Positions 15,916-47,617 of a stretch of DNA of 51,906 nt are shown piece after piece. This DNA comes from Pseudarcicella sp. (GTDB taxonomy: Bacteria; Bacteroidota; Bacteroidia; Cytophagales; Spirosomataceae), in NCBI GenBank assembly GCA_017988135.1, contig JAGNSI010000001.1, forward strand, positions 1 through 51,906, given 5' to 3'. Under the pieces are notes generated by a model. The model ran no database searches. It was not told the origin of the DNA and saw nothing but the letters and a program-made list of their open reading frames with translations. The stretch's first letter is position 1. Every line of letters starts with the position of its first letter. The position numbers and the translations under genes were made by a program.

Positions 15916-16773
15916 TTATTTATTTTTTCTAAATCTTCCAAATTTATAGCCCAAAGCACCATAATATTCTAAAAACCAAATACTTTGCTTGGCATAATCG
16001 CTATCTCTGCTAGTTGTTTTTATATCTGGCAAATGGGTAAAACCTGCCTTGAAGTCTGACTGTAAAAAGAATCTTTTACTAAAATCAAAGCGTAAACCTG
16101 TCTTTATTGAGAATCCATAGCCAGCTACTTTGAAATGATTATTTTTTCCAACACCAAACAATTTAGCATCTGTACGAGGCAAAAGAATACCTGTGCCTAC
16201 TCCCGCCAACCAATCTAAACCCAATTTTTCATTCTTTGATTGCCAAATATTACCGTATTTGTCTAGTTCAAAATGTATATAATTGAACCCATCAGAATGC
16301 TCAAAGGTCAAAAAATCTTTTGAATCTATTTTGAATGGTTGATTTTCAAATGTTCCAACATAATTTGGATTGACAGCAATGTCTGGTTCTGATACTTTTT
16401 CAGAAATTGTTCCAGAGATAGTAGACATTTGATCATTTACCATGATGTATTTCATATGGTCAGTTCCAAACGAAATAGACAAATCGTCTTTTATAAAATA
16501 TCCAAACCTCATATTGTATTGAGGTATAGATAGCCTTGTAATGTCAAAGTAACTTTTTACTGAAAAAGGTACTGGTAAATCTTTAGCAACTACGTCTTTT
16601 AATGTAAAATCGTAGCCTTTTCCTTTAAATGTAATATCAGAATCTAAATAAGTAGACCTATTGTATCCCCAAAAAAAATAAAACTCCCCTTTCCTACTGT
16701 ATTCTTTTTCTTTGGTTTGAGAAAATGACGAAAAAAAACACAATAGCAATATGCCAACCTTAAAATAATTCAT
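15916..16773 (-). CDS. Hypothetical outer-membrane beta-barrel-like protein embedded in the arg operon
   Basis: 285 aa. Signal peptide (ILLLCFFSSFSQ) and alternating aromatic/hydrophobic beta-strand pattern, ending ...YGALGYKFGRF. No family recognised. Confidence 0.5.
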   Translation of the reverse strand: MNYFKVGILLLCFFSSFSQTKEKEYSRKGEFYFFWGYNRSTYLDSDITFKGKGYDFTLKDVVAKDLPVPFSVKSYFDITRLSIPQYNMRFGYFIKDDLSISFGTDHMKYIMVNDQMSTISGTISEKVSEPDIAVNPNYVGTFENQPFKIDSKDFLTFEHSDGFNYIHFELDKYGNIWQSKNEKLGLDWLAGVGTGILLPRTDAKLFGVGKNNHFKVAGYGFSIKTGLRFDFSKRFFLQSDFKAGFTHLPDIKTTSRDSDYAKQSIWFLEYYGALGYKFGRFRKNK

Positions 16774-20280: not shown

Positions 20281-23200
20281 CTATTTCAAGCTAAACTTAC
20301 GTACAAATTCTTTTCCTGATTGATCTTTTAGACGAATAAAGTATATTTTAGATAACAAGTTTGGCAAATCAATGATTACTTTATTGATGCCTGCCTGTAC
20401 TTTGATATCTTTGGCCAAATACTGCATGCCCAAGATGTCTACTATTTGCGTTTGAAGAATTTTATCTTCATTGCTTTCAATGTCTATTCTTATCTGCTTG
20501 CCTGATACTGGATTTGGATATACTTGACTTACTCTTGTATTTTCAGTTCCATTTTCTACGTATTCGATTCTTGAATGTACCCAAGTTTCGTTTGTATTAA
20601 TCATTTTCAAGCGATAATAATTGGCATTGGCAGACACATTATTGTCTACAAACTTATAGCTAGGTGAATGGTTAGCCTGTACAAAACCTACTTTTTCGAA
20701 TAGCTTACCGTCTGTACTTTTTTCTATTTCGTAGCCTTTAAAGTCTGTTTCGTTGGTTACGTTCCAAACCAAAATATTACTCTTCGAACTGTTCTTTTTG
20801 GCTGTAAAACTAGCCAAGCTTGCCGATAATGGTGCGGCACTTGGTGTGTTCACAAAGAAACCTGAGAAACCTGATACATCAAAAGTTACTGACCAATACG
20901 CTCCGTTCCAAACTATTTTGCTAGTATCTGGTATTATTGTAACTGGCTCTGAAGGATAACCCGAAGGGAAACCATTGCTAGATACACCTGAAAATTTAAC
21001 AATTTTAAGGTTTAATTTATTCAAACCGTCTGTTGGTCCGGTTGGTAATTTCAATGCGTTGCTTACATTGTAAGCATCAAAATCGGCTTGGGTAAAATAC
21101 AATGTTACGGATGCTGTTGCAGTATTTGGATTGACAGTCGGTGTAATTTCGTAATGACGACGTAAATAATTTGGTGAACTTGTGGCACTCACAAATACTT
21201 TCACTTTTACATCGCTATTGACTGCTGTAGAGCCTCCTATTGGTAAAATTTTAGCAGCTAATTCACAATCTGAGTTTACAAAAACATTGTTATTTACATC
21301 TTGAAACAAAGAATCTGTATCCATCAACAAGCTATAAATATTGGCAATTTGGCTTTCGTATGCACCAATATCGGTTATCGATGCACCGCCTACTGTTAGC
21401 ACATCTACCATTGGATTACCTAAAATATCTGTTGGATGATAATCCAATGCAACGTCTACTAATGGCGAACAAGTTTTTAGCATCAAACCATCATCAGCGG
21501 TTAGCCATTTTCCATCATCACCTATAGGGTTATTTGCATTTTTAAATCCTGGATTTACTAACACATTGTTTACACCAGGATACACACTTGAACCTTCAAT
21601 ATCTGAGTATTGTATATCGAAAGCTCCTCCAAAAAATTCTTCTAAGCTAGTGTTACCATCACCAGTGTTCCCCCAAATTATTGAGTTCACTATTGTTGCA
21701 CTTGCAAGTGTCGCAGCACAAACACTTCCTTCAAACACAGAAACGTGGTTATTCAAGATATCGGTATTGGACACAACGTTATTATTTCCAAATGTAAAAA
21801 ACATAGCACTTGCAGAAATATTAGCAAGATTACCTATCATTACAGATTTTGAAATATCCAAGGCTGTATTTTGATAGGTATAAATACCAGAACCATAATT
21901 TGCTTTGTTATTTGTAAGTACAGATTCTGTGAGATTTAAGTTTGAACTTGAAGCTGAATAAATAGCACCTCCATACTCAAAAGCTGAATTATTTTTTAAA
22001 ATGCAATTTTTTATTTGAAATTCTGCAGGGTTATTTGCCAAGAAAACCGCTCCTCCATTTTGACCATCGAAACCTGAAGATAAATTCAAAAATGAAATGA
22101 AATTTAAATCGTCAGCGTTGCCACCTTCAATAGTAAGACCATTTATTTGAGTAATAGCAGTAATAGACTCACCAACTGCAACTACGTGATAGGCGTTTTC
22201 AGAATTATTGTTAATATTCAAAGTTGCTCCTGTACCTGTTACAACGTCATCGTTGTTAAAATCACCAGATAAAGTAGTTACGTAATCCTTTGGATTTCTA
22301 TCTCCAATAACTGGATTTCCTGAAGCTGGGAATCCACCAAACACATTGGCACCATTTTTCATCATAAATGTTTTTGAACGAACATCTATTGGACTAGAAT
22401 TTCCAAATTCATCCTCGGTAGGGAGATATTTCCCTTCTGCTACCCAAACCTCTGTTACCGAGCAAGCATTCAAACCTTCTTGAAGATTTTTAAAAGCTGT
22501 AGCCCAGCTCAATCCATCACCAGATACAGCAACAGCATTGTTTACATGCGCTTTTGACACTGAAGGCTTCACGGTTACGCTCAGCGATGATGTTCCTGTA
22601 GTACATTGACCTGCTGTGGGCGTAAATGTATAGGTTCCTGATGCAGTATTACTCAATGCTGGTGACCAAGTACCTGTAACACTATTGGTTGAAGTAGTTG
22701 GCAATGGAGCTAAAGTTGCTCCCGAACAAATAGGATTTACAGCATTAAAAGTAGCAGTAACTAATGGATTTACAGTTACGCTCAATGATGATGTACCTGT
22801 AGTACATTGACCTGCTGTTGGCGTAAAAGTATAGGTTCCTGATGCAGTATTACTCAATGCTGGTGACCAAGTACCTGTAACGCTATTGGTTGAAGTAGTT
22901 GGCAATGGAGCTAAAGTTGCTCCCGAACAAATAGGATTTACAGCATTAAAAGTAGCCGTAATGGATGCATTGCCAGTTCCTTGAATAGCAAAGGTGTACG
23001 GATTTTCGTTTGCATCGTCATTTACTATAGAAATAGTTGCATTTTTTACACCAGAAATAGTCGGATCAAAAGCCACTGTAAAAGTTGTACTTCCCGAAGG
23101 ACTCACGGTAGCACTTGGCTGAGTAGAAACAGAAAAACTGCTGGCATCTGCTCCTGTGATACTCACAATTGGCGAACCTGACAAATTTAAAGTACCTGAA

Positions 23201-24783
23201 ACATCTGTATTTTTGATGGTATACGTTTTAGAAATAGAGCCCGTACCTGCAGCACAAACATTTCCAAACTGGGTATTATTGGAAGCAGATGCTGTATTGG
23301 AACCATTAGCTATAGCTACATTTCCAGCATCTACAACATCTATTTCAGGAGCTAATATTTCTGAAGAAAACTTAATATTATCTACCGAAATATAATTTAT
23401 GCCACTTACCACAACAAGCTCTATAGCTTTTATCAATTGGTTGTTGAAAGGTGTTGATGCAAACGAAATATTTTGTTGCCAACCTGTACCTGTATTATTA
23501 GTAGGTGTTACGGTAAAATCTGCTTGAACGGTAGTTCCGTCTAATTTAGTACCTATCAAACGTACTACTCCGGTTGCAAAACCATTGTTTCCATCAGCAT
23601 TTGATGTCCAAGCATCAAAACTTATCAATTTTATAGCTCTATTTCCAGTTGTAATATTTATTTTACCAGTACTTGCGGCGTTTCCACCATTACCTATAGT
23701 AGAATGCAACCACGAGTTTGACGAACCACTTCCAAATGTTGCAGCAGTATATACTTTCAAATCTTGAGTAGCACTAAAAGAAATACCATTTTGTGAGAAT
23801 GTAGCTCCGCCATTGGTTTCACCTTCAAAAGTTTCTGTCACGGCATCGTCGTCTAATATATTGCCAACTCCTTGAGCATCCAGTAAAGTGCCACCTACTG
23901 GAGAAGTAAGATTTACAAAATAGGTTTCGTTGGGTTCAAGACTTACATCTCCATTTACTGTTACATTTACTGTTTTAGTCAATTCACCTATAGCAAAATT
24001 TACAACTTGACTGCTTATAGCGGTGTAATCTACTCCAGAAGTAGCAGTTCCATTTGCTGTGTTTACTGTAACACTACCTGTCGCCGAAGAATTTGTTCTG
24101 GATACCGTAAAAGTATGCGTATTCGTACCAGAGTTTGCTTCAATAGCACTTACATCATTGATAGAATATTGGCTACTTACTATAGGAGCTGTTGTAAAAT
24201 TGATATTGTCTATAGAAAAATAAAGCAAATTTGATGGCAATTGAAACTCAAGCTTGATCAATTGAACATTTTCAAGAGCTGTGCCTGCAAAAGTAATTCC
24301 TTCATGATAGTCTAAACCATTGGGAAGAGGTACTATGTTTCTTGTTGCAGAAACGGTAGTTCCATCAGGTTTTGTACCTATGAAAGTAACTGTTCCCGAA
24401 TTGTGTACCAATAAATCTATATCATTACTTGTCCAGCAGGCAAAAGAGTTAATTTTGAATGATGTAGCTGCGTTGGTAATTCTAAAACCTCCAATATTTT
24501 GATTTGAATGGTTTATTAATGTTGTTGTTTCAAAATAAACTGCTGATCCATTTGAGCCAAATCCTTGCCCCCATGCTACCCTCATCCTAGTTCCCGTAAC
24601 TTCAAAATTTATTCCTGACTCTGAAAATGCATTGTCATACACATTGAAAGTCGTTTCGCCTTCAAAACTTTCAGTGGCTGTAGTTTGCCCATAGTTTAGT
24701 AAGGGCAAGAAAACGAGCAGACATAACAGCAATTTTCTTACTCCGAGAAAATCGCTTTGATTAAAGTGTATATTTTTTTTCAT
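20281..24783 (-). CDS. Giant secreted multidomain adhesin-like protein with T9SS C-terminal sorting domain
   Basis: 1500 aa. Signal peptide. Two copies of an N-terminal module (ESFEGET.../ETFEGET...). A Calx-beta-like segment (GTATSGVDYT...VNGDVSLEPNETYFVNL). A choice-of-anchor-D-like Ig region. Two identical Cys-pair modules. A Pmp/beta-helix-like repeat region (GGAVF...NNSAFEYGGAIYS). An FN3-like domain. A C-terminal VYPNPVSGKQIRI...IYFIRL T9SS type-A tail. Confidence 0.85.
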   Translation of the reverse strand: MKKNIHFNQSDFLGVRKLLLCLLVFLPLLNYGQTTATESFEGETTFNVYDNAFSESGINFEVTGTRMRVAWGQGFGSNGSAVYFETTTLINHSNQNIGGFRITNAATSFKINSFACWTSNDIDLLVHNSGTVTFIGTKPDGTTVSATRNIVPLPNGLDYHEGITFAGTALENVQLIKLEFQLPSNLLYFSIDNINFTTAPIVSSQYSINDVSAIEANSGTNTHTFTVSRTNSSATGSVTVNTANGTATSGVDYTAISSQVVNFAIGELTKTVNVTVNGDVSLEPNETYFVNLTSPVGGTLLDAQGVGNILDDDAVTETFEGETNGGATFSQNGISFSATQDLKVYTAATFGSGSSNSWLHSTIGNGGNAASTGKINITTGNRAIKLISFDAWTSNADGNNGFATGVVRLIGTKLDGTTVQADFTVTPTNNTGTGWQQNISFASTPFNNQLIKAIELVVVSGINYISVDNIKFSSEILAPEIDVVDAGNVAIANGSNTASASNNTQFGNVCAAGTGSISKTYTIKNTDVSGTLNLSGSPIVSITGADASSFSVSTQPSATVSPSGSTTFTVAFDPTISGVKNATISIVNDDANENPYTFAIQGTGNASITATFNAVNPICSGATLAPLPTTSTNSVTGTWSPALSNTASGTYTFTPTAGQCTTGTSSLSVTVNPLVTATFNAVNPICSGATLAPLPTTSTNSVTGTWSPALSNTASGTYTFTPTAGQCTTGTSSLSVTVKPSVSKAHVNNAVAVSGDGLSWATAFKNLQEGLNACSVTEVWVAEGKYLPTEDEFGNSSPIDVRSKTFMMKNGANVFGGFPASGNPVIGDRNPKDYVTTLSGDFNNDDVVTGTGATLNINNNSENAYHVVAVGESITAITQINGLTIEGGNADDLNFISFLNLSSGFDGQNGGAVFLANNPAEFQIKNCILKNNSAFEYGGAIYSASSSNLNLTESVLTNNKANYGSGIYTYQNTALDISKSVMIGNLANISASAMFFTFGNNNVVSNTDILNNHVSVFEGSVCAATLASATIVNSIIWGNTGDGNTSLEEFFGGAFDIQYSDIEGSSVYPGVNNVLVNPGFKNANNPIGDDGKWLTADDGLMLKTCSPLVDVALDYHPTDILGNPMVDVLTVGGASITDIGAYESQIANIYSLLMDTDSLFQDVNNNVFVNSDCELAAKILPIGGSTAVNSDVKVKVFVSATSSPNYLRRHYEITPTVNPNTATASVTLYFTQADFDAYNVSNALKLPTGPTDGLNKLNLKIVKFSGVSSNGFPSGYPSEPVTIIPDTSKIVWNGAYWSVTFDVSGFSGFFVNTPSAAPLSASLASFTAKKNSSKSNILVWNVTNETDFKGYEIEKSTDGKLFEKVGFVQANHSPSYKFVDNNVSANANYYRLKMINTNETWVHSRIEYVENGTENTRVSQVYPNPVSGKQIRIDIESNEDKILQTQIVDILGMQYLAKDIKVQAGINKVIIDLPNLLSKIYFIRLKDQSGKEFVRKFSLK
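22574..22956 (-). repeat. Tandem 201-bp (67-aa) duplication inside the adhesin gene
   Basis: Two head-to-tail copies (period 22574 to 22775) with about 6 nucleotide differences by my count. They encode identical ATFNAVNPICSGATL...GQCTTGTSSLSVTV modules. Confidence 0.9.
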
Positions 24784-24854
24784 TTTAATAAAATTTAAAT
24801 TTAAAATATTCTTTTTTTCTAAAGAAGATTGATTTTTTCAATCAATTTCAAAAT

Positions 24855-24889
24855 GAGAAGCTTCATTCAAAAATGGAACAATGCTTCTC
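24855..24889 (-). terminator. Weak stem-loop between the tail-collar gene and the adhesin gene
   Basis: GAGAAGC, 21-nt loop, GCTTCTC, followed on the minus strand by ATTTTG. The loop is long, so function is uncertain. Confidence 0.3.
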
Positions 24890-24899
24890 TTTAAAAAAA

Positions 24900-25427
24900 T
24901 TAATTACGTGATGGATAAATACCATACATACAAATAATAAAATTCATCGCTAAATATGGCTGTACAATACTCACTGGCATATTATTACCAGCAGGTGTTG
25001 TTTGCGAAGCCATGGGCACTACAGTGCTTCCAGAGGTAGCATATATTGAAGGCATTGGTACTGTTCTAGACGAAGAAGCTAAAATACCTCCTGAAGCTAA
25101 ACTTTGTGTAGGCCCAGCTGAAGTACCTGTCATTAAATGTGTGTGTGCAGGCAAATTTGATTGTAAAAGAGTTACATTTTCGACACCTGACATTTGCCCT
25201 AAAGCATAATAACTTAAACCTGCCCCTTGCCCTACTCCTACTGGCACTCTGCCTCTGAAATCGGGTAATGCAAAAGTTGTAGTTCCGTTTCCTCCGTAAG
25301 TTGTTCCTAAAATTGAAAACAATGCTGTGTTTTGTGCTATACTCACTATTTGCCCACTACAAAATGACCAAGTTTTAGGTGCAAAATTGCCTGCAAACAT
25401 TCTTATTTCTCCAATAGTTCCTTCCAT
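24900..25427 (-). CDS. Phage tail-collar domain protein (MdpB/COG4675-like), paralogue 2
   Basis: 175 aa. IGEIRMFAGNFAPKTW..C.GQ...IAQNTALFSILGTTYGGNGTTTFALPDFRGR, NLPAHTH and C-terminal IICMYGIYPSRN. No signal peptide. Confidence 0.85.
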   Translation of the reverse strand: MEGTIGEIRMFAGNFAPKTWSFCSGQIVSIAQNTALFSILGTTYGGNGTTTFALPDFRGRVPVGVGQGAGLSYYALGQMSGVENVTLLQSNLPAHTHLMTGTSAGPTQSLASGGILASSSRTVPMPSIYATSGSTVVPMASQTTPAGNNMPVSIVQPYLAMNFIICMYGIYPSRN

Positions 25428-25459
25428 GATCGTATTGATTTTTGTGTGAAAATATTTTT

Positions 25460-25978
25460 TTAATTTCTAGAAGGGAATATACCTTCTGAACAAATAATAT
25501 AGTTTATAGCAATGGTTGGTTGCAAGATTCCAAAAGGTGAATTCCCTCCAGTAGCTGCCACAGCGGAACCCATATTTACATTAGCTCCCGCCGTATTTGC
25601 ATAAATATTAGGCTGTGTTTCTCCGCTTGCCAAATAGTTACCGTTAGCCGCACTCGATGTTGGAGCTTCTGAAGAAGCCATCATTCCATGAACATGCGCT
25701 GGCATGTTACTCACTAACATTGTTTGGTTTTGAGAGCCAGCCATTTCACCTAAAGCATAGTAGGATAATCCTGGCCCTTGAAATGTTCCTACTGATATTC
25801 TACTATTAAAATTTGGCAACCCAAATGTAGTTATACCATCTCCGCCATAGTTAGTACCTAAGAGAGAAAATAACGCTGAATTTTGTGATATAGACTGTAA
25901 AGAACCATTACATAAAAGCCAGCCTCTTGGTGCGAAGTTGCCAGCAAATATTCTGATTTCTGCCAGGTATGGATCCAT
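25460..25978 (-). CDS. Phage tail-collar domain protein (MdpB/COG4675-like), paralogue 1
   Basis: 172 aa. LAEIRIFAGNFAPRGW, QNSALFSLLGTNYGGDGITTFGLPNF, NMPAHVH and IICSEGIFPSRN. Roughly half the residues are identical to the neighbouring paralogue. No signal peptide. Confidence 0.85.
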   Translation of the reverse strand: MDPYLAEIRIFAGNFAPRGWLLCNGSLQSISQNSALFSLLGTNYGGDGITTFGLPNFNSRISVGTFQGPGLSYYALGEMAGSQNQTMLVSNMPAHVHGMMASSEAPTSSAANGNYLASGETQPNIYANTAGANVNMGSAVAATGGNSPFGILQPTIAINYIICSEGIFPSRN

Positions 25979-25980
25979 AA

Positions 25981-26529
25981 TTACGAAATTTTAGAATTGA
26001 TATAAATATTAAATTTCACTTTTACTAAGTCATCGTTGCTCCAGTCTGTTTTGGGTAAATCTATTGTTTCTAAAAAAGACATTTGTTCAAAATATTGATT
26101 ATCGATAAATGCTTTTCCCAATCCGTTAAACAGTAATTGAGTGGTGTATTGATTCTCATCCTTGCCTTGTACTTTCAAAAAAAGTCTTCTCATCAATGGC
26201 TGTCCTTCTGTAAAATGTTTTTCTGGAAAATCTGTTTCAAAACTAAAATTTCCCAATTCGTCGGTTTTTAAAGTACCTTTATACGTAAAATTCTCTTCAT
26301 TCGTTTCTATGTTATTATGCCAAAATTCTATACTTGAGTGGGCTTTTGCTTCTGAAAACTGATTAAGAACTTGACCCGATATCCTTAAACGTTTGCTATT
26401 TCCTTTGCTAAAATTGTTAATCGATTGTTTGTTTTTGGAAGCTGATTTCCCTATCAAAGGTGCCAAGCCAAGACCCAAAGCAAAAATCGAAGCGCTTTTA
26501 AAAAAAGTTCTACGACTATTATTTATCAT
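25981..26529 (-). CDS. TAT-signal protein with intradiol-dioxygenase-like beta-sandwich fold (possibly non-catalytic)
   Basis: 182 aa. Twin-arginine motif SRRTFFKSASIFALGLGLA. ISGQVLN....IEFWHNN...YKGTLKTDELGNFSFETDFP resembles the dioxygenase C-terminal domain. Its stop is 2 nt from the start of collar paralogue 1. Confidence 0.5.
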   Translation of the reverse strand: MINNSRRTFFKSASIFALGLGLAPLIGKSASKNKQSINNFSKGNSKRLRISGQVLNQFSEAKAHSSIEFWHNNIETNEENFTYKGTLKTDELGNFSFETDFPEKHFTEGQPLMRRLFLKVQGKDENQYTTQLLFNGLGKAFIDNQYFEQMSFLETIDLPKTDWSNDDLVKVKFNIYINSKIS

Positions 26530-26567
26530 TTGTAATAGATGGTTAAAAAATACTTGTTTCTAAAAAA

Positions 26568-27242
26568 TTAAATTTGTACCCACATTCTTAAAAGATTACT
26601 GTGGGTTTGGAGCAAAAGATTACTTTCCATAGAATTGGGTGCGTTGCTATAAAGCATACCATGTAATTGGTTGAGTTCAAACAAAATTTGCCTTTGCTCT
26701 ACCGAAGCTACTTGACTTTGCACCCACGTTACTGCGGCTACTCTTTCTCCTTTGGTTACTGGGTTTACACAATGTAAAAAGTTGCATGGGTACACTATGG
26801 CATCTCCTTTATTTAGTTTATAAGAACTAACGCCTTGAGTACTATTGATAAGCAACTCGCCACCTTCGTAACTTGCTGGGTCTGACAAAAAAACAGTCAT
26901 TGCCAAATCTGTTCGCATAGCAGGAGTACCCATTACTAGACTATCTATATGCCAACCATAATTCATATTTTCTAGGTATTTGCTTACAATGATAGGATAA
27001 ATGTGTTTGGGAAGTGAGTATATTTGAAACAGAGGACTATTATCTAATGCATGAGTGAGGATTTCTTTGACACGAGGCAGGGTTTGAGTATCAGAATTAG
27101 GTATTTGTAAGTTTTGTTTGACCTGTTGAGCACCAAGAGAAGCCGTTGTAGAGCCATCTTGAAAATTGCTTTTCGATATTAAAATACTTATTTCTTCCAA
27201 CTCTCCCAAAGTGAGTAGCTGGGGAATAGCGATTGGTCCCAT
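26568..27242 (-). CDS. PKHD-type Fe(II)/2-oxoglutarate hydroxylase (YbiX/PiuC family)
   Basis: 224 aa. IPQLLTLGELEEI...FQDGSTTASLGAQQVKQNLQIP N-terminus. H-x-D (WHIDS) and distal H (FLHCVNPVTKGERVAAVTW). Confidence 0.8.
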   Translation of the reverse strand: MGPIAIPQLLTLGELEEISILISKSNFQDGSTTASLGAQQVKQNLQIPNSDTQTLPRVKEILTHALDNSPLFQIYSLPKHIYPIIVSKYLENMNYGWHIDSLVMGTPAMRTDLAMTVFLSDPASYEGGELLINSTQGVSSYKLNKGDAIVYPCNFLHCVNPVTKGERVAAVTWVQSQVASVEQRQILFELNQLHGMLYSNAPNSMESNLLLQTHSNLLRMWVQI

Positions 27243-27276
27243 TTGTATTAAAAATTAGCTATAAATTATAGCCTTT

Positions 27277-27580
27277 TAGTGTGTTATGTATTTGAAATTT
27301 ATAAATAAAAAAATAGCTTTATCTATAAAAATGTATTTATGCTAATAGTGTGTTAATCAAGAAAATCAATTTCCTTATTTATACTAATCTAAACATTTAT
27401 TATTCAAATTACAAATAAATTAAACACTAAAAATAGATGTAACACACTAATAATCAAGTGTATTGAAAAGTAAAATCAAAAAAAGTATTTATTCTTAATT
27501 AGAATCAATATTAAAATTTATACATTTGAAAATTAAAACAGATTGAATAAATCTTTAAAAAAATCATTCATAACACACCA
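27277..27580. promoter_or_regulatory. Divergent promoter region with repeated TAACACAC(T/C)A motif (candidate operator sites)
   Basis: TAGTGTGTTA at 27277-27286 and 27346-27355. The reverse-complement TAACACACTA at 27440-27449. TAACACACCA at 27571-27580, abutting the ATG. A degenerate TAAACACTAA at 27421-27430. Confidence 0.45.
27521..27528 (+). promoter_or_regulatory. Candidate -7 box (TACATTTG)
   Basis: TAnnTTTG match 52 nt upstream of the ATG at 27580. Confidence 0.4.
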
Positions 27581-28260
27581 TGGATTTTATAAAATTTAAC
27601 CTGCAATATGATGTTGTAAAACTAAAATCAGATTTAAAAAATTGTCAAAAATACAAGTGGCCCTTACATTTCAACCAAAACGATTTTACAGGACATTGGT
27701 CAAGTATAGCTTTGAGGTCTATATCGGGTAACGAATCGGATATTTCATCGCAAGCAAACGCCACATACAAAGACACCCAACTACTTGACGAATGCCATTA
27801 TTTCAAAGAAATAATTACCAATTTTCAGTGCCCTTTAGAGTCTGTACGATTGCTTTCGCTGTCGCCTAATAGCTACATAAAAGCCCATAAAGACCCAGAT
27901 GCAGGTTATGAAGACGGTTTTTTTAGAATACACATTCCCGTTCAAACCAACAGCGATGTGGTGTTTACCCTCAACAACCAAACCTTGGCAATGAAAGAGG
28001 GTGACTGCTGGTATGCCAATTTCAATCTTACCCATTTTGTAGCCAACAATGGCAATCAAGACCGCATCCATTTGGTAATCGATGGCATAAGAAACCAGTG
28101 GAGCGACCAACTTTTTGAAAAACATGGCTATGATTTGAGCTTAAAAAGTAATGATAATTTAGACGAAAAAACTAAACAATTAGTAATAGAAAATCTGAAA
28201 CAGATAAACACACCTACAGCAAAAAAACTGATAGAAAACTTAATAAATGGTACAATATGA
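27580..28260 (+). CDS. Aspartyl/asparaginyl beta-hydroxylase-family cupin oxygenase (soluble)
   Basis: 226 aa. AHKDP....FFRIHIPVQTN...MKEGDCWYANFNLTHFVANNG..DRIHLVID matches the Asp_Arg_Hydrox signature. No TM segment. Confidence 0.8.
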   Translation: MDFIKFNLQYDVVKLKSDLKNCQKYKWPLHFNQNDFTGHWSSIALRSISGNESDISSQANATYKDTQLLDECHYFKEIITNFQCPLESVRLLSLSPNSYIKAHKDPDAGYEDGFFRIHIPVQTNSDVVFTLNNQTLAMKEGDCWYANFNLTHFVANNGNQDRIHLVIDGIRNQWSDQLFEKHGYDLSLKSNDNLDEKTKQLVIENLKQINTPTAKKLIENLINGTI

Positions 28261-29225
28261 AAGACTATATTTTAAAAAATTGGATTCCGTACAAGCTTGA
28301 TTATCAAGAAACTAATGATATTTTGTGCCAATGGTTATATTTGGGAGAGAATAGATTTACAGAACCTTTCTTTGAAGAAACTACGGGATTATGTAGACGT
28401 TTAGAAATCAATAGAAACATACAAAAATCATGTACTACTTTTGATGGAATAAACGATTTTTCCGAAAACATTCCACACCTAGAACCAACAGCTTTTATAT
28501 TTCACATTTCGAGATGTGGCTCTACTTTGCTGGCACAATTGCTTTCTTTGGATGAACAAAACATAGTAGTTTCGGAAGCTCCTATTTTAGACGAAATAAT
28601 AAGAAATGTAGCTTATAAAAGCAGTCTAAAAACAGAAACAGAAATCAACAATGCTATAAAATCTTGTATAAAATTATTAGGAAAAAAACGTTCTGGAAAT
28701 GAAGAAAATTTTTTCATTAAACTAGATAGCTGGCATATTTTCTATTACCAAAAACTAAGGCAATTATATCCAAATACGCCATTTATATTTTCGTACAGAA
28801 ACCCAAGCGAAGTAATACGATCGCAAGAAAAAAATAGCGGCATGCACGCTTCACCTGGCATTATTCAAATAGATTTGTTTGGCCTCGACTTCACAGAAAG
28901 CCTAAAACTTTCTAAACCTGAATACATCAGCAAAGTATTAGAAAGCTACTTTAATGAATATTTAAAAATAATAGACTCTGACAAAAACTGTATTTTTGTA
29001 AATTATAACAATGGTTTGTTAGAAAATTTAAACCAAATAAAAGAGTTTTTAAAACTTCATTTCAGTGAAGAATTCAAAGAAAAAATCACAGAGCGAAGCA
29101 AATTTCATAGCAAAATGCCCAACCAGATTTTTAAAGAACCAGCTATAAGTACCACCATTCCTGAATACCAAAATACAGTGAAGGATTTGTATGAAAAATT
29201 GAATGGTTTAGTAGAAAAATTGTAA
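28257..29225 (+). CDS. PAPS-dependent sulfotransferase-family protein
   Basis: 322 aa. 5'-PSB-like loop FHISRCGSTLLAQLL and 3'-PB-like YRNPSEVIRS. The start overlaps the upstream stop (ATGA, 28257-28260). Confidence 0.65.
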   Translation: MKDYILKNWIPYKLDYQETNDILCQWLYLGENRFTEPFFEETTGLCRRLEINRNIQKSCTTFDGINDFSENIPHLEPTAFIFHISRCGSTLLAQLLSLDEQNIVVSEAPILDEIIRNVAYKSSLKTETEINNAIKSCIKLLGKKRSGNEENFFIKLDSWHIFYYQKLRQLYPNTPFIFSYRNPSEVIRSQEKNSGMHASPGIIQIDLFGLDFTESLKLSKPEYISKVLESYFNEYLKIIDSDKNCIFVNYNNGLLENLNQIKEFLKLHFSEEFKEKITERSKFHSKMPNQIFKEPAISTTIPEYQNTVKDLYEKLNGLVEKL

Positions 29226-29276: not shown

Positions 29277-30083
29277 ATGTTAAAAAATAGAATTTTCATG
29301 GGTTTCAAAACAAGTTTAAATATATTTTTATTTTCTATAAGTATCACCTTAATATCCTGTAAATCAACAACACAAATCACCGAAAGTCAAAAAACTTTTT
29401 TTCAATATAATATTTGGGGTGCTTTTGTAAATAAAGTTTTCGAAGGGAATATGACCATCGGAGAATTGCATCAAAAAGGGAATATTGGCTTAGGTTCTTT
29501 TGACAAACTAGATGGCGAACTGGTAATGATAGATGGCGTAGCCTACCGTGTAAGAGAAGATGGCAGCATAACTGTTGGTCAAAAAAACGATACAATTATT
29601 TATGCAGATGCCACTTTTTTTAAACCAACAGATTCTTTCACATTAGAAAACATCGAAAACTATGACATTTTAAGGAAAGAACTGAATAAAAAAATACCTA
29701 CTCCAAACGTTTTTTATGCTTTTAAAATATATGGAGAGTTTGAAAACATTACGCTGGGCGGGTTACACAAGCAAGAGCCACCCTTTACCAAAGGACTAGA
29801 TGTACTGATACCAGCAAGACCTGTCTTCAAAGGCACTAACATTAAAGGCACTTTAATAGGATTTTATTGCCCTGCTTACATTGGTAATATCAACACAACT
29901 GGTTATCATTTTCATTTTTTGGCAGACAACAAATCTATTGGAGGACACTTAATGGACTTGAAATTTAGTGCATCTGCAAAAATAGAATTACAAGCCTTGC
30001 AAAACTATGAATTCAGACTGCCAGAAAGTAAGGATTTCGAAAAAGTTCAATTCGACAAACAATTTCAATACAATAAAAAATAG
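29277..30083 (+). CDS. Alpha-acetolactate decarboxylase homologue with lipoprotein signal
   Basis: 268 aa. AlsD core (GLGSFDKLDGELVMIDGVAYRV; His cluster GYHFHFLADNKSIGGH). It is preceded by a signal peptide with lipobox-like LISC. Confidence 0.8.
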   Translation: MLKNRIFMGFKTSLNIFLFSISITLISCKSTTQITESQKTFFQYNIWGAFVNKVFEGNMTIGELHQKGNIGLGSFDKLDGELVMIDGVAYRVREDGSITVGQKNDTIIYADATFFKPTDSFTLENIENYDILRKELNKKIPTPNVFYAFKIYGEFENITLGGLHKQEPPFTKGLDVLIPARPVFKGTNIKGTLIGFYCPAYIGNINTTGYHFHFLADNKSIGGHLMDLKFSASAKIELQALQNYEFRLPESKDFEKVQFDKQFQYNKK

Positions 30084-30096
30084 TAGTCAATACTGT

Positions 30097-31233
30097 TTAT
30101 TTTACAGACAAAAGTTTTAAATTTTCAAAAACTTCTAAATGTTGATTAGCTGTGGCTTCCCAACTAAATTTCTTTGCTTGACTATAACCTTTAGCGATAT
30201 AATTGGCTCTAATATCGTCGTTATCGATTAGCATTTTAATTTTCAGTAGTAAATCATCACTAGAATTCACATCAAAATATACACCTGCGTCTTCTGCTAC
30301 TTCAGGGAAAGAGCTATGATTTGCTAATACAACAGGACAACCGCAAAGCATAGATTCTAAAATAGGAATTCCAAAACCTTCGTATAATGACGGAAATACA
30401 AAGCATTTTGCCCTATTATACAAAAAACCTAATTGGTCTTCTTCAAAACTGACTTGTAAAACTTTGCCTTTCAAACCTAAATTTTCAATAAATTCCAATT
30501 CGTGTTGTTTGAAAACTCCACCACCAGCAGCAATTAAATACAAAGATTTATCTTCTTGCAGAAGTTTAGCAACAGATTCTACAAAAAAATTGAAGTTTTT
30601 ATAATTCTCTCTATTGCCGACAAATAAAATATATTTTTCGGGTAATTCCATTTGCAAACTTTTCTCTATTTTGATAGAACTCGCTAGATAAATTACCTTG
30701 ATTTTTGAGCTTGGTATATGAGGATAAAAAGTCAAAATATCGTTTTTGGTACTTTCTGAAATTGCAATAATTTTAGACGCTTTCTCTATGAGTAATTTTT
30801 TATTTGCCACTACATTCAAAGAATCATTCTCAAAATATTCAGAAAACTTCTCATGAATCATATCATATACCGTTAAAACAAATGGCATACCGTTTATTTT
30901 CTCCAAAAAAGCTGTATCGTAATACGTTGGCATGAAAACATCAAATGATTTATCCTCAAAATTTAGATATAATTGTTTTTTAGTAATATTTCTCAATCTT
31001 GTTTTTGTGCTAATTCCTAGTTTAGAGAGCATTTCAAAAAAAATCAGACTGATTGTTTTTTTTTGAATCATAAATTTAGAGTTTTTTATAACAACATTTT
31101 CTGTCTTATAAATAGGCAAAACTATGTCTACATCTTTTTTATCTGACAAAATTGAAAAAACTTCAAAAAAATATCTAGATATACCTCCATATTTCTGAAT
31201 ATCGAATATTTGAGAATCAAGCAAAATTTTCAT
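30097..31233 (-). CDS. Glycosyltransferase family 4 (GT-B)
   Basis: 378 aa. C-terminal EGFGIPILESMLCGCPVV motif. Confidence 0.85.
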   Translation of the reverse strand: MKILLDSQIFDIQKYGGISRYFFEVFSILSDKKDVDIVLPIYKTENVVIKNSKFMIQKKTISLIFFEMLSKLGISTKTRLRNITKKQLYLNFEDKSFDVFMPTYYDTAFLEKINGMPFVLTVYDMIHEKFSEYFENDSLNVVANKKLLIEKASKIIAISESTKNDILTFYPHIPSSKIKVIYLASSIKIEKSLQMELPEKYILFVGNRENYKNFNFFVESVAKLLQEDKSLYLIAAGGGVFKQHELEFIENLGLKGKVLQVSFEEDQLGFLYNRAKCFVFPSLYEGFGIPILESMLCGCPVVLANHSSFPEVAEDAGVYFDVNSSDDLLLKIKMLIDNDDIRANYIAKGYSQAKKFSWEATANQHLEVFENLKLLSVK

Positions 31234-31240
31234 TTATTTT

Positions 31241-32083
31241 TTATTTGTATAGGTTATTTTTAATAAAGTTATAATCTTTCTCTAGCAGTGAGTTTCTTTT
31301 TATTTTACTATTTACACCATAAAACTTACCTTTAAAATAGCTCAAAGAGTATTTTCTAACCTTTTTAAATGCGAATTTTAATTGCAATGTAGTAAGAGAC
31401 TTAGATGTAAAAATGTGCAGAGAATTGTTTTTGTTGTAATACTTTAAATTGAATTTTTCAGCAATAAATCGCATCGTTTTTTCTGAATAAAATGCAATAT
31501 GTTGTCCTGTTTCATTAGTAATGTACCACCAATTTTCAATGTCTGTATTGTTACTAGGCAAAAGTTCCGTTGAAAAAATTATAGTATCAGAATACTTTAA
31601 AACTTTTTCTATTTCCTCTATTGGATTTCTAAAATGCTCAAATACTTCAAATGCTGTAACTACGTCAAATTTTTTATAATCCGTATCCAAAACATCGAAA
31701 TGCTTTGCGAAAAGATTCTCACAATAATCATCTTGTCTGTAAAAATCAAAACCTTGATCTCTCATGTATCTAACAAACAAGCCATAGCCACCGGCGTAAT
31801 CTAAAAATAATTTTGCTTCAGAAAAGCAACTATTTATAATTTTCCGAGTATCTTCTTTTAAGTCAAGGTTACGCTGAGGTAATCCAATATCTAAAGATGT
31901 TATTGCAGACAAATACGATTCTTCAAACCAAAATGGTTCGTCTGTTTGAACAAACGAGCATTTTGTACATTTATAATAATTAGATTTATATTTGTTTAGA
32001 ATAATTTTATCGAAAATAATTTCAGATTTACTATTACAGACTTTACAGAGTGTCATTCTTTTAAAATTTGGTAAGAAATTCAA
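31241..32083 (-). CDS. Class I SAM-dependent methyltransferase with N-terminal Cys4 zinc-ribbon
   Basis: 280 aa. CKVCNS...CTKCSF, then LDYAGGYGLF (SAM motif I) and DVVTAFEVFEH. Confidence 0.7.
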   Translation of the reverse strand: MNFLPNFKRMTLCKVCNSKSEIIFDKIILNKYKSNYYKCTKCSFVQTDEPFWFEESYLSAITSLDIGLPQRNLDLKEDTRKIINSCFSEAKLFLDYAGGYGLFVRYMRDQGFDFYRQDDYCENLFAKHFDVLDTDYKKFDVVTAFEVFEHFRNPIEEIEKVLKYSDTIIFSTELLPSNNTDIENWWYITNETGQHIAFYSEKTMRFIAEKFNLKYYNKNNSLHIFTSKSLTTLQLKFAFKKVRKYSLSYFKGKFYGVNSKIKRNSLLEKDYNFIKNNLYK

Positions 32084-32135: not shown

Positions 32136-33053
32136 TCAACCCAGCGTATCTCCTATTTTAAAACCCAAAGTAGCCATATTTTCGCCGACCATATAGCCTT
32201 GTTCGGTATAAATGGCTTGAATTATTAAGGTTTCATCGCCGAGACAGGCTACATGTATTTCCGAAGAATTTATAAGAATTATATTACCTGGCAAAGCTTT
32301 AATTTCTGCTGCAATTACTGTTTTAGCTTCTAAAATTTTCAAAAATGCACCTTTGAATTTTACAGCAGCTCCTTTATTCCATGGATTGCAAGCTTTCACC
32401 AATGCTACGATTTCTGCCGCACTCATATTTTTGAAATCAACTATCATGTCTTGCATTTGAGGGCGTTTAGTGTATTGCTCACTTACTTTCGTCTGTGCTT
32501 TCAGTGTAAGTGTTCCGCCTAAAAGAGCATTTATCAACTGAAAAACACCATTGATTGTAGCATATCCAAACATCACTTCTATGGCTCCGTAAATCTGATT
32601 TTTATGTAAATCAAATGGTATTTCTATTGCTATATCGCCAGCATCAAACTTTTCGTTCATTTTATGAATAGTGAGTTGGCACTGTGGCTCTCTATTTTTT
32701 ATTTGCCAAAAAACTGGTACAGCACCTGCATATTTAGGCAAGCTTCCAAAATGAATATTAAAAAAACCATACTTCGGTAACGTCAAAACACTAGCTGGTA
32801 TTTTGAAAGGACAACCCAGCACCAGCACTAAGTCTGCTTGCGATGATTGCACAAAACCTATTAAATCATTATTTAGATTTTCACGCCTCAATACAGTTAT
32901 GTTTTGATTGATTTGTTGTGCTATCTGGCGTAAATCTTGCGAAAAATCGGTTTGCTGTTCATTTATACCTATTGCAGCCAACAATTGTTGTCCTCTAAGC
33001 CAACTTATCAGGGGAAAAGCGGCTGTGGTATTACAAATAAGTGCTATTTTCAA
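32136..33053 (-). CDS. Formyltransferase-family protein (Fmt/ArnA-N paralogue, probably not the housekeeping fmt)
   Basis: 305 aa. FFNIHFGSLPKYAGAVP (N-x-H and SLPxY motif, with Ala where Fmt has Arg) and DAGDI, plus a C-terminal Fmt-like domain. The N-terminus is atypical. Confidence 0.7.
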   Translation of the reverse strand: MKIALICNTTAAFPLISWLRGQQLLAAIGINEQQTDFSQDLRQIAQQINQNITVLRRENLNNDLIGFVQSSQADLVLVLGCPFKIPASVLTLPKYGFFNIHFGSLPKYAGAVPVFWQIKNREPQCQLTIHKMNEKFDAGDIAIEIPFDLHKNQIYGAIEVMFGYATINGVFQLINALLGGTLTLKAQTKVSEQYTKRPQMQDMIVDFKNMSAAEIVALVKACNPWNKGAAVKFKGAFLKILEAKTVIAAEIKALPGNIILINSSEIHVACLGDETLIIQAIYTEQGYMVGENMATLGFKIGDTLG

Positions 33054-33129: not shown

Positions 33130-33663
33130 ATGATTTTAATACAACTTACAGGCTTGTCTGGTGCTGGCAAAACTACCATTGCTGGTTTTATTGAAAACAC
33201 TTTACAACAAAATGGCTTCAACGTAAGCATTATAGATGGTGATATTTTTAGAAAAAAATTTTGTACAGATTTGGGTTTTTCAGAAACAGATAGATTTGAA
33301 AATCTAAACAGAATAATCGCTTTCGCAAAAAACAATTCGGCAAACCACGATTTTATTATTTTATCAATCATCAATCCATTTGAAAGTGTAAGAAAAAAAA
33401 TAAAGACTGAGTTTCAAAATTGTATGACCATTTGGGTAAATTGCACTTTAGAAACTTTAAAAAAAAGAGACACCAAAGGTTTTTACCAAAGAGCTTTTCT
33501 TCCTCCTAACGATCCTAACTATTTAAAAAATTTCACAGGCATTAGCCAAAAATATGAATTGCCTTTACAATATGATTTAGCCATAAATACAGACGAACTG
33601 AGCATTTCAGAAACTCAACATTTAATCTCTCAATATTTTAGTAAACCGTATCAAAAACTATAA
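33130..33663 (+). CDS. cysC: Adenylylsulfate (APS) kinase
   Basis: 177 aa. LTGLSGAGKTTIA P-loop and DGDIFRKKFCTDLGFSETDRFENLNRIIAFAK. Confidence 0.88.
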   Translation: MILIQLTGLSGAGKTTIAGFIENTLQQNGFNVSIIDGDIFRKKFCTDLGFSETDRFENLNRIIAFAKNNSANHDFIILSIINPFESVRKKIKTEFQNCMTIWVNCTLETLKKRDTKGFYQRAFLPPNDPNYLKNFTGISQKYELPLQYDLAINTDELSISETQHLISQYFSKPYQKL

Positions 33664-46489: not shown

Positions 46490-46535
46490 CTAACAAAAAA
46501 GAGCTTCTTTGAAATAAGAAGCTCTTTTTTGTTAG
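46490..46535. terminator. Strong bidirectional terminator (copy 2 of the duplicated element)
   Basis: CTAACAAAAAAGAGCTTCTT, 6-nt loop, AAGAAGCTCTTTTTTGTTAG. This is a 20-bp perfect stem. The stop codon of the convergent minus-strand gene lies within the right arm. Confidence 0.8.
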
Positions 46536-47617
46536 TGTTGAAAACTCAATCGCTCAGCCAATAAAGCCAAACAATGAGCTTCACAACTCCATTTCATATG
46601 AAAAATTGAGCAGGAAGATAACTTATAAATAAACTGATTTTCAAAAGCAGTTAAAAAACCACCTATAAAAAAATTCCAATCGGGTGCATACAATGCTAAG
46701 ACCTGTTCGTCATTACTCAATTGTAAATTTGGATTTAAGCGTAAATAACTGGTTTCTAAAATCAATCTATCCATTCCTTTAACAGTTTTCTTATCTAAAA
46801 ACAAAGCAATATCATCACTTAACTTACACTTAACTTTCACTGAATCTAATCTATCAAAATCAGCAAACAGTCTTGCTAAATGATACATAATTACAGGTGT
46901 ACTGGCATAATGATGGGCCACATTGAATGGTTGAATGATGTATTGATTGGTTAAAATAACCGATTCTAAATACAACAAAGTACTGATAGCATGCTTATCA
47001 AAACTCAAATTATAATACGCCAAACAATACAAAATATTAGACATAGCACAAGCGTCAAACTCATTGTACATTTTATTGCCAAACCAAGTACTGTATGCAG
47101 GCAATTCTTTGTATTCTTCAAATGTATTTACTATTGTTTTCTGAGAAGTATTGGCATGAAATTTCAATCTTTCTTGTAATTTTTCGAGCTGAATTTTATC
47201 AGGAATACTTGTCAAATACACCATCGCTGTGTCATCTATGTCATCTGGTAATTGCAAAAAATCTAAATATTTAAGTACAAATCCATTTGTAAAATGTTTA
47301 GACGGCTTGGTTTGAAAAAAATTATACGTTTCAAAACCCTGTTTATTTTCAAACAAATGATAAGCATTTTGTGCATTTAATGTAATATCAGAGATTAATT
47401 TTTGGGTAAAAATATCACATTTGTTTTTTATTTGGTTGAGTGTAAAAATGGTGATTGCCGTAGAAAATATATTTGCATCGGGTCGCTTATAAAACCATAA
47501 ATAATTGCTTCGATAAGAAGCAAAACATCCCTTAGGAAAATATTTATCACTTGATTTAGATTGTAAATCAGCTATTTGTAAAACTATGTCTTTAATTTTT
47601 TCCAATACAAAATTCAA
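46532..47617 (-). CDS. Hypothetical protein with DxDDTA motif (possible alpha/alpha-toroid, class II terpene-cyclase-like)
   Basis: 361 aa. LQLPDDIDDTAMVYL at residues 121-135. No ATG at the 5' end (TTG at 47617). The start is uncertain because an upstream terminator abuts it. Confidence 0.5.
   Translation of the reverse strand: MNFVLEKIKDIVLQIADLQSKSSDKYFPKGCFASYRSNYLWFYKRPDANIFSTAITIFTLNQIKNKCDIFTQKLISDITLNAQNAYHLFENKQGFETYNFFQTKPSKHFTNGFVLKYLDFLQLPDDIDDTAMVYLTSIPDKIQLEKLQERLKFHANTSQKTIVNTFEEYKELPAYSTWFGNKMYNEFDACAMSNILYCLAYYNLSFDKHAISTLLYLESVILTNQYIIQPFNVAHHYASTPVIMYHLARLFADFDRLDSVKVKCKLSDDIALFLDKKTVKGMDRLILETSYLRLNPNLQLSNDEQVLALYAPDWNFFIGGFLTAFENQFIYKLSSCSIFHMKWSCEAHCLALLAERLSFQH

Follow-up and report, generated by a model that had tools for sequence, protein, structure and literature searches.

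A conserved chromosomal cluster of collar, hydroxylase and sulfotransferase genes in Pseudarcicella sp. and in two bacterial phyla

The stretch of DNA analysed here, referred to as the window, comprises 51,906 nucleotides of a contig from Pseudarcicella sp. (Bacteroidota; JAGNSI010000001.1, positions 1 to 51,906). A conserved chromosomal system spans 20.3-33.7 kb of the window and has its core at 24900-29225, where two genes for small proteins with a phage-type Collar domain lie divergently from the genes for a cupin Fe(II)/2-oxoglutarate (2OG) hydroxylase and a sulfotransferase of the 3'-phosphoadenosine 5'-phosphosulfate (PAPS) type (Table 1). When the cluster was followed across genomes, the core common to two phyla was found to consist of one or more collar genes together with the genes for the cupin, the sulfotransferase, a formyl- or acetyl-type N-acyltransferase and a giant secreted adhesin. 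As judged from the sequences, the collar proteins may be the substrate of these enzymes, being modified in the cytoplasm, trimerised from tandem paralogues, exported and used with the adjacent adhesin, a reading to which we give a probability of about 0.4. An earlier, sequence-only reading of the window had staked its proposal on the prediction that collar genes stay syntenic with the oxygenases and with the cupin-sulfotransferase pair, and this synteny was found both in Bacteroidota and in another phylum.

The sulfotransferase family was scanned in one genome per species and was detected in 305 species genomes. Open reading frames (ORFs) were labelled at the best 80 of the 305 loci (numbered with the prefix L below), which belong to Cytophagales, Chitinophagaceae and Sphingobacteriaceae, plus one metagenome-assembled genome (MAG) labelled Acidobacteriota; 40 of these 80 have 10 kb on both sides and are called full-flank loci. 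Among the full-flank loci, the cupin was present in 36, an adenosine 5'-phosphosulfate (APS) kinase in 30, collar genes in 29 (usually as sets of two or three), an adhesin-like gene in 28, an Fmt-like formyltransferase in 22, an HExxH protein of ~168 aa in 21 and a cytosolic type-I binding-protein-like gene in 19. Less frequent partners were a metallophosphoesterase-like gene with a twin-arginine translocation (TAT) signal (13), the PKHD gene (12), PhyH dioxygenases (11) and the gene for a dioxygenase-fold protein (3). Near close homologues of the collar proteins, the genes were ordered PKHD, dioxygenase-fold gene, collar, collar and giant Calx-beta adhesin, with cupin, sulfotransferase, formyltransferase and APS kinase on the opposite strand upstream. 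The window proteins were 36-64% identical to their counterparts in L004 and L005 and are their gene-for-gene orthologues.

The APS kinase and Fmt-like genes are also present in the window, at 32.1-33.7 kb, so the system is larger than described earlier: the core had been drawn correctly but not the boundary, since conserved members reach 33.7 kb. The Fmt-like protein scored 109 bits with the NCBIfam fmt model, below its cut-off of 201.5, and was 44% identical to the orthologues that adjoin the APS kinase in L004 and L005.

Beyond Bacteroidota, an Acidovorax operon of overlapping genes encodes a collagen-like protein, a cupin, a sulfotransferase, a TAT-signal binding protein and a collar protein, its cupin and sulfotransferase being 30% and 23% identical to those of the window. 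A metagenome scan seeded with the Acidovorax sulfotransferase returned 80 high-GC loci, 65 with the cupin and 41 with collar genes; where more than 5 kb was available on both sides, collar genes were found in 18 of 24. Recurrent partners in the high-GC loci were a GNAT acetyltransferase (22 loci), DUF6916 (16 loci), giant DUF4347/Big_12 adhesins (10 loci) and HlyD/M50/ABC genes. In some Bacteroidota, too, members of these GNAT and DUF6916 families are found beside collar genes, and the adhesins of the two phyla have no specific homologous domain in common. This cross-phylum synteny, together with the gene fusions described below, excludes pure coincidence.

The cupin belongs to Pfam PF05118 (Asp_Arg_Hydrox; E 4e-17, 62.8 bits against a cut-off of 22.6), and the residues of its iron/2OG site, HxD...H plus Arg (H103, D105, H152 and R162), are invariant in the family. 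Its earlier description as an Asp/Asn beta-hydroxylase therefore stands for family membership but not for the closest solved relatives, which in searches with the family profile were the free L-proline hydroxylases (cis-4-hydroxylase 4P7W, 1e-20; 3-hydroxylase 1E5R, 2e-11). No hydrophobic segment could be read from the cupin sequence, and the LpxO model gave only 18.4 bits against a cut-off of 500. As the enzymes are soluble and the LpxO score lies far below its cut-off, the envelope lipid once proposed as a target is unsupported.

The sulfotransferase matched Pfam Sulfotransfer_3 at 29.7 bits (cut-off 27) and carries an extra N-terminal domain of ~75 aa. Both of its cofactor-binding motifs are intact and invariant, the 5'-phosphosulfate-binding SRCGST (S85-R86-x-G88-S89-T90) and the 3'-phosphate-binding R181...S189. 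AlphaFold models of this enzyme and of the dioxygenase-fold protein were built from database homologues; that of the sulfotransferase reached a predicted local distance difference test (pLDDT) score of 87, and its top Foldseek matches were the tyrosylprotein sulfotransferases TPST2 and TPST1 (E ~1e-6), by a small margin over carbohydrate and small-molecule sulfotransferases. An invariant E107 follows R86 by 21 residues, a spacing presumably equal to that of R78 and E99 in TPST2. The family comprises at least 1100 clusters at 90% identity, none of them functionally named.

Cupin and sulfotransferase were found fused in a single ORF at four loci (L036 9278-10951, L089 9281-10948, L221 467-2197 and L235 5698-7299), which come from both low-GC and high-GC genomes, and the sulfotransferase was fused to a PhyH dioxygenase in the Arcicella MAG locus L016 (9950-11866). 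Where the two genes are separate, no more than 15 nt lies between them in 28 of 37 Bacteroidota loci. The fusions and the close spacing are the strongest evidence that the cupin and the sulfotransferase act in sequence on one substrate. From the sequences we strongly infer a PAPS-dependent O-sulfation of a hydroxyl put in by the cupin, and infer that hydroxylation comes before sulfation. The idea of a hydroxylate-then-sulfate pathway has thus gained support, from the fusions, the near-universal translational coupling and the dedicated APS kinase.

Both collar proteins of the window matched Pfam Collar PF07484 through an N-terminal domain (collar 2, E 3.7e-28; collar 1, E 5.4e-26; 97.7 and 90.8 bits against a cut-off of 24), and neither has a signal peptide. 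Collar proteins matched phage tail and tail-fibre proteins over nearly their full length; collar 2 matched PHROG tail proteins over residues 6-167, and collar 1 weakly matched the T4 short tail fibre gp12. Collar 2, which is 63% identical to the second collar protein of L004, carries an HxH motif and the C-terminal sequence GIYPSRN. In trimeric phage tips the HxH motif binds metal. H95 and H97 were present in all 134 cluster-associated collar proteins, in which G169 and P172 are also invariant; the conserved C-terminal pattern was G-[IV]-[FY]-P-S-R-N, as in the window. Tandem sets of three collar genes were found in 27 Bacteroidota loci and 13 high-GC loci, and such triple sets are compatible with predicted heterotrimers.

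Among the best 8000 candidates scored in the homologue search, 7993 matched collar 1, so that the family has at least 7993 members. Some close homologues (P0005, P0009, P0080) have tandem double-collar domains, or else a PEP-CTERM tail, a signal anchor or a Sec signal peptide, features that the collar proteins of the window all lack; relatives with these export and anchoring signals indicate that the family works outside the cytoplasm. When ten collar homologues were sampled directly, the enzyme pair was nearby in six and at least one accessory gene in eight, and most adjoined a giant adhesin or a T9SS-tagged surface protein (type IX secretion system, T9SS). In both phyla, accessory genes (the binding-protein-like gene, GNAT, DUF6916 and the dioxygenase-fold gene) are operonic with collar genes. 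With such partners at eight of the ten sampled homologues, the system seems to be centred on the collar genes. The collar domain has been reused elsewhere as a pilus-tip specificity module (PMC9881135), and positive selection has been reported on collar paralogues (PMC3174227).

Our hypothesis on the substrate, and on its trimer formation, export and role at the surface, runs as follows. The APS kinase would supply PAPS, the cupin Fe(II)/2OG hydroxylase would install a hydroxyl group, and the coupled sulfotransferase would O-sulfate that hydroxyl; an N-acyl group would be added by the Fmt-like enzyme, or by the GNAT in other lineages. The collar proteins, which we take to be the likeliest substrate, would be modified in the cytoplasm, as PAPS is available there. 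One to three tandem paralogues would probably assemble into (hetero)trimers, which would be exported and form a sulfated binding tip that works together with the adjacent adhesin. In the lineage of the window, the signal-less collar proteins may hitch-hike on the TAT-signal, catalytically degenerate dioxygenase-fold protein as a carrier; a TAT partner is absent from many variants, so this route would not be general.

A fuller version of this proposal, which we consider unlikely as a whole, would be a cross-phylum system in which the hydroxylase and a TPST-like sulfotransferase, fused in some genomes, make O-sulfated hydroxy-residues on exported, domesticated collar trimers that arm giant adhesins of the T9SS or of the type I secretion system (T1SS) with sulfated binding heads. 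It would include, at the same doubtful level, export of the signal-less collar proteins here by the catalytically dead TAT-signal dioxygenase-fold protein.

Several observations weigh against modification of the collar proteins. The preference of the sulfotransferase model for TPSTs in Foldseek was marginal (template-modelling (TM) scores 0.45-0.52), and the conserved Tyr129 of the collar proteins is Phe in 14 of 134, which leaves no nameable modification site. Many cluster variants have no TAT partner, and we know of no formyltransferase that acts on proteins. Three further points on this side also speak for a different outcome, in which the cupin (joined in other loci by PhyH and PKHD enzymes), the sulfotransferase, the APS kinase and the formyl- or acetyltransferase would make a sulfated, hydroxylated and N-acylated metabolite. 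Its precursor would be an aryl acid or an amino acid, and the adhesin and collar proteins would be its binding partners or receptors, or just co-regulated with it. The nearest characterised relatives of the cupin use free amino acids, its family profile fitting the free L-proline cis-4- and 3-hydroxylases best; the binding-protein-like partner, which is cytosolic, resembles small-ligand binders, specifically those of aromatic acids (benzoate-derivative binder 4EVQ, E 1e-37); and the trio of sulfotransferase, APS kinase and cupin stands alone, with no collar gene within 10 kb, at 11 of the 40 full-flank loci. The cupin also gave a weak NCBIfam match to 'nonproteinogenic amino acid hydroxylase', the PhyH partners weakly resemble ectoine and methylphosphonate hydroxylases, Fmt-like enzymes are known to act on small molecules or aminoacyl-tRNA, and the Chitinophagaceae versions of the cluster also encode an NMNAT-like nucleotidyltransferase and, with a TAT signal, a SoxB/5'-nucleotidase-like protein. 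However, no ligase, non-ribosomal peptide synthetase or dedicated small-molecule exporter recurs in the Bacteroidota clusters, and the fold of the sulfotransferase is nearest to protein-tyrosine sulfotransferases. Moreover, in two phyla and down to minimal clusters of three genes, the enzyme pair accompanies collar genes, which is hard to explain unless the collar proteins take part. A small-molecule product is, in our estimate, somewhat unlikely.

Modification of the adhesin in place of the collar proteins was also considered. The adhesin would be hydroxylated and sulfated in the cytoplasm, before its export by Sec/T9SS, or by T1SS in Proteobacteria, with the collar proteins as accessory or assembly factors. 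The link of the cluster to a giant surface adhesin, drawn earlier from the window alone, does recur, giant adhesins standing behind the collar genes in 28 of the 40 full-flank Bacteroidota loci, and 10 high-GC loci, with HlyD/ABC genes nearby, have unrelated giant DUF4347 adhesins in this position. A precedent for cytoplasmic modification of T1SS substrates ahead of export is the acylation of RTX toxins by HlyC, and eukaryotic Asp/Asn hydroxylases act on extracellular repeat domains. Against this stand the lack of any specific domain homologous between the adhesins of the two phyla, the many clusters that have collar genes and the enzyme pair with no adhesin within reach, and the fact that Sec substrates are normally unfolded and quickly exported. 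The adhesin is thus a distinctly improbable substrate.

Pfam and NCBIfam models identified a Calx-beta domain, a choice-of-anchor D Ig domain and a T9SS C-terminal sorting domain in the adhesin of the window, which also has a signal peptide. In its N-terminal part, a duplicated module flanks the Calx-beta domain, and this N1-Calx-N2 arrangement is kept at 39-43% identity over ~680 aa among adhesins behind collar genes (L004, L005, L012, L013, L017, L019, L020 and L029). At L003 (11273-14861, Emticicia sp. C21), small secreted Gly/Thr/Ala-rich proteins replace the giant adhesin, one of them tabulated as PF26696 PTL_trimer and one as Cthe_2159 carbohydrate-binding, and a radical SAM gene comes after them; the cupin-sulfotransferase set of L003 lies on the same contig, ~15 kb from the collar genes.

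When window positions 24783-27242 were compared with the closest relative (L001 669-3723), synonymous divergence was 0.28 for the adhesin N-terminus, 0.55 for collar 2, 0.81 for collar 1, 1.5 for the cupin, 2.2 for the dioxygenase-fold gene and 3.0 for PKHD. The dioxygenase-fold protein was just 43% identical between the two, and its neighbours 75-93%. This synonymous gradient suggests that the adhesin-collar segment was exchanged by recombination more recently than its neighbours.

The TAT-signal protein of the window scored 20.1 bits with Pfam Dioxygenase_C PF00775, below the gathering threshold of 27.3, and its AlphaFold model (pLDDT 81) showed an intradiol-dioxygenase beta-sandwich, with intradiol dioxygenases as all of the top 50 Foldseek matches in the PDB (E down to 4e-9). 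In the protocatechuate 3,4-dioxygenase beta chain, the Fe(III) ligands are two Tyr and two His (Y408, Y447, H460 and H462). In a profile alignment with 2PCD/3PCD, the Y408 region is deleted and the other three ligands are replaced (Y447 by H, H460 by R and H462 by F). As the canonical iron ligands are lost, the protein is probably not an oxygenase, and an active catechol dioxygenase was rejected; a binding or carrier protein is probable on this alignment. The dioxygenase fold assigned earlier was right, but an oxygenase role is improbable, which leaves the described span with two plausible oxygenases, not three. The subfamily is tiny, with eight clusters at E<1e-10 among 1.84 billion representative proteins. 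Its gene, present in 12 of the 80 loci, is confined to clusters of the Emticicia/Arcicella/Pseudarcicella type and lies directly upstream of the collar genes in every locus that carries it (2-25 nt where the gap was measured). Positive selection on this protein was not shown, dN/dS (ratio of nonsynonymous to synonymous rates) being 0.23 with dS saturated. Hitch-hiking on a TAT partner was rejected as a general rule, a TAT-signal partner of any family being found in only 16 of 40 full-flank loci.

The PKHD enzyme belongs to 2OG-FeII_Oxy_3 and passed the NCBIfam equivalog model NF003974 (236.5 bits; cut-off 143); it matched the PDB structure of PiuC, 9QN1, at E 3e-40 and is 63% identical to its orthologues in L003-L005. 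It is thus a PiuC/YbiX homologue, and the earlier statement that PKHD enzymes hydroxylate protein or lipid is not established. Homologues of PiuC/YbiX partner TonB-dependent receptors in Proteobacterial iron uptake (PMC12004947), which would fit two unrelated modules: the PKHD and dioxygenase-fold proteins would be a PiuC-like pair for iron or catechol, with only the cupin-sulfotransferase pair related to the collar genes. Alternatively, no neighbour would have a functional link. The descent of the dioxygenase-fold protein from catechol-cleaving enzymes, and the presence of the PKHD and dioxygenase-fold genes in just 28 and 12 of the 80 loci, point the same way. Against it, no TonB-dependent receptor was found among the window ORFs scanned against Pfam, the dioxygenase ligands are lost, the dioxygenase-fold gene stands within 2-25 nt of the collar genes, and PKHD shares the collar operon in the window, 38 nt from the next gene. 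Cross-phylum synteny and fusions exclude pure coincidence, and two unrelated modules are very improbable. As part of the system, the PKHD/TAT pair proposed earlier is lineage-specific (12/80 loci), whereas the cupin-sulfotransferase-collar core is general.

The layout of the window cluster is given in Table 1. Six ORFs lie in 24900-29225, four on the minus strand and the cupin and sulfotransferase divergently on the plus strand. The ORFs, strands, 38-, 2- and 32-nt gaps, 337-bp spacer, ATGA overlap and 1500-aa adhesin reported by the sequence-only reading were all exact, and its family assignments held in Pfam and NCBIfam, except that the TAT protein was sub-threshold in Pfam and owes the confirmation of its fold to the model.

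Table 1. Genes and control region of the cluster in the window.
Feature	Position	Strand	Remarks
Giant secreted adhesin	20281..24783	-	1500 aa
Collar paralogue 2	24900..25427	-	175 aa, COG4675/MdpB-like
Collar paralogue 1	25460..25978	-	172 aa; 32-nt gap to collar 2
TAT-signal protein, motif SRRTFFK	25981..26529	-	2-nt gap to collar 1
PKHD (PiuC/YbiX-type) Fe(II)/2OG dioxygenase	26568..27242	-	first gene of minus-strand operon; 38-nt gap
Divergent intergenic control region	27243..27579		337 bp
Soluble cupin Fe(II)/2OG hydroxylase	27580..28260	+	226 aa, Asp/Asn/Pro hydroxylase family
PAPS-type sulfotransferase	28257..29225	+	322 aa; ATGA overlap with cupin read directly
Fmt-like formyltransferase, N and C domains	32136..33053	-	Pfam; beyond originally described span
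APS kinase	33130..33663	+	Pfam APS_kinase E 3e-36; beyond originally described span

In the 337-bp spacer, the repeated 10-mer noticed before is real: TAGTGTGTTA has exact copies at 27277-27286(+), 27346-27355(+) and 27440-27449(-) and a one-mismatch copy at 27571-27580(-), and no further exact copy was found elsewhere in the window. In dinucleotide shuffles of this AT-rich spacer, some 10-mer reached three copies in ~10%, and TAGTGTGTTA was not found in the corresponding spacer of the closest relative, L001. Because the repeat is only modestly unusual and missing from L001, it is a candidate operator and was rejected as a proven one. A Bacteroidota -7-like box, TACATTTG, was read by eye at 27520-27527 in the same spacer.

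In related Cytophagales, the PKHD-to-dioxygenase-fold spacer (~250 nt) contains a conserved AACAGGTATTTTTACCC, which includes the palindrome GGTA-N4-TACC, and after it the Bacteroidota -7-like box TAATTTTGC, the two forming a promoter-like unit that precedes the dioxygenase-fold gene (L004 9199-9440, L005 9189-9442 and the equivalent spacers of L013, L015, L016, L022 and L023). The 38-nt gap between PKHD and the TAT protein in the window does not contain the AACAGGTATTTTTACCC motif. A short precursor like those of ribosomally synthesised and post-translationally modified peptides was rejected, no conserved small ORF being found in the PKHD-to-dioxygenase-fold spacers of related loci, the only spacers screened. 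Between collar 2 and the adhesin, the 116-nt spacer 24784-24899 holds an inverted repeat, GAGAAGC-N21-GCTTCTC, followed by ATTTTG, possibly a weak attenuator that separates the adhesin from the collar genes.

Variants of the cluster carry further genes. The ~168-aa cytosolic HExxH protein, with an invariant GDxLHEAGH, is encoded upstream of PKHD (L003 8152-8655, L005 7999-8505 and 44 other Bacteroidota loci) and had no match in Pfam, NCBIfam, PDB or PHROG; a further copy, whose motif has decayed to YEAGR or HEAGR, is present in some loci. Chitinophagaceae variants (L031 7252-8043 and 9563-9964, L035 8415-9161 and ~25 others) add two genes, one for a TAT-signal metallophosphoesterase-like protein with a faint SoxB/5'-nucleotidase resemblance and the other, between the APS kinase and sulfotransferase genes, for a 133-aa NMNAT-like nucleotidyltransferase; their APS kinase has an N-terminal DUF2061 membrane segment. 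In the high-GC loci L184 (3786-16515), L179 (359-8244) and L242 (8463-12962), DUF6916, GNAT, HlyD, an M50-HlyD fusion and an ABC ATPase surround the core, together with giant DUF4347 adhesins or an IPTL-CTERM Ig protein. The conserved C-terminus of DUF6916 proteins is ...AVFN, that of collar proteins ...PSRN. No remnants of the HExxH, binding-protein-like or PhyH genes were found when searched for in the window, which holds a reduced version of the cluster without these genes.

Genes for an acetolactate decarboxylase (for which a hydrophobic leader is predicted at the N-terminus), a glycosyltransferase of family GT4 and a class I methyltransferase, at 29277-32083, separate the sulfotransferase from the formyltransferase in the window; all three are absent from the 80 labelled related clusters. 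The surroundings are housekeeping genes, namely folD, lpxACD, dnaN, a gldG-like gene, arginine biosynthesis, relA and nuo genes. A 625-aa WG_beta_rep protein is encoded at 1824-3701, and sizeable ORFs at 15916-16773, 46532-47617 and 50176-51708 had no Pfam match at E<=1e-5.

Pfam scans of the window ORFs detected no capsid, terminase, sheath, tube or baseplate genes, and the sole recombinase is a XerC/D-type tyrosine recombinase (48857-49813) ~20 kb away. The view that the locus is not a prophage was thus right. No relatives of the sulfotransferase were found in 2.9 million viral contigs searched, nor were cupin-collar pairs, and the accessory genes had no PHROG match. A prophage or tailocin origin was accordingly rejected, on the absence of phage structural genes in the window and of sulfotransferase relatives in viral contigs. 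One locus filed as viral, L093 (IMGVR_UViG_3300024934_000003, 78-1672), has a fragmented cupin and a sulfotransferase of the family (E 1e-42); it is probably a bacterial fragment and no evidence for phage carriage. A defence system was also rejected, PADLOC giving only a generic 2OG-domain match for PKHD and nothing for the other proteins.

If the substrate is a protein, the nearest known system is RaxX-RaxST-RaxAB, the tyrosine-sulfation system of Xanthomonas (PMC6637879). In both, the gene for a PAPS-dependent sulfotransferase of the Sulfotransfer_3/TPST type lies beside that of a presumed protein substrate (PMC6637879). Modification of a signal-less substrate in the cytoplasm before export is likewise proposed for the cluster, and Proteobacterial variants carry HlyD/ABC genes as well. 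However, the Rax substrate, RaxX, is a leader peptide of 60 residues that a peptidase-containing ABC transporter cuts, whereas the candidates here are folded collar proteins of ~175 aa, and no peptidase-containing ABC exporter was found in the window cluster. In contrast to RaxST, the cluster sulfotransferase has an Fe/2OG hydroxylase as its obligatory partner, at times in a fusion, so that the sulfated hydroxyl would probably be newly installed and not that of tyrosine. The cluster also has a dedicated APS kinase and an N-acyltransferase, and the Rax system has neither hydroxylase nor collar proteins.

The other likenesses concern single components. The collar proteins resemble the receptor-binding tip of T4 gp12 and other phage tail-collar fibre proteins: they are homologous to phage tail and tail-fibre proteins over nearly their full length and keep the HxH motif, but have no shaft, phage genes or prophage around them; they are stand-alone proteins of ~175 aa, encoded on the chromosome in tandem sets of one to three with modifying enzymes. 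The cupin aligns with proline cis-4-hydroxylase 4P7W and 3-hydroxylase 1E5R (PF05118) at HxD...H and the 2OG-binding Arg, although at low identity, and to our knowledge free-proline hydroxylases are not partners of sulfotransferases. PiuC/YbiX enzymes, which the window PKHD resembles by its equivalog score and its match to PiuC structures, pair with TonB-dependent receptors, whereas its own neighbours are the dioxygenase-fold and collar genes. The dioxygenase-fold protein has the beta-sandwich of SACTE_2871 (4ILT/4ILV) and of the protocatechuate 3,4-dioxygenase beta chain (TM 0.61 to 4ILV, target-normalised), but its four iron ligands are missing or replaced and its Pfam score is sub-threshold. 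SACTE_2871 is a secreted intradiol dioxygenase, a small domain exported by the TAT route.

A literature search found no description of this cluster; its parts all come from known superfamilies, and the system as a whole, with no described counterpart, is probably new. It gives the large COG4675/MdpB collar family, which has no assigned function, defined partners and a testable chemistry. We know of no established case of bacterial protein sulfation besides RaxST. A sulfation pathway that depends on hydroxylation, found in Proteobacteria and in hundreds of Bacteroidota from soil and fresh water, would add a new class to the surface modifications of bacteria; alternatively, the sulfated metabolites made by the cluster would be a new family. 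Export by TAT hitch-hiking on a degenerate enzyme fold would, if true, be an unusual solution. A phage receptor-binding module would have been domesticated beside giant adhesins, which would bear on adhesion, gliding, biofilms and cell-cell recognition.

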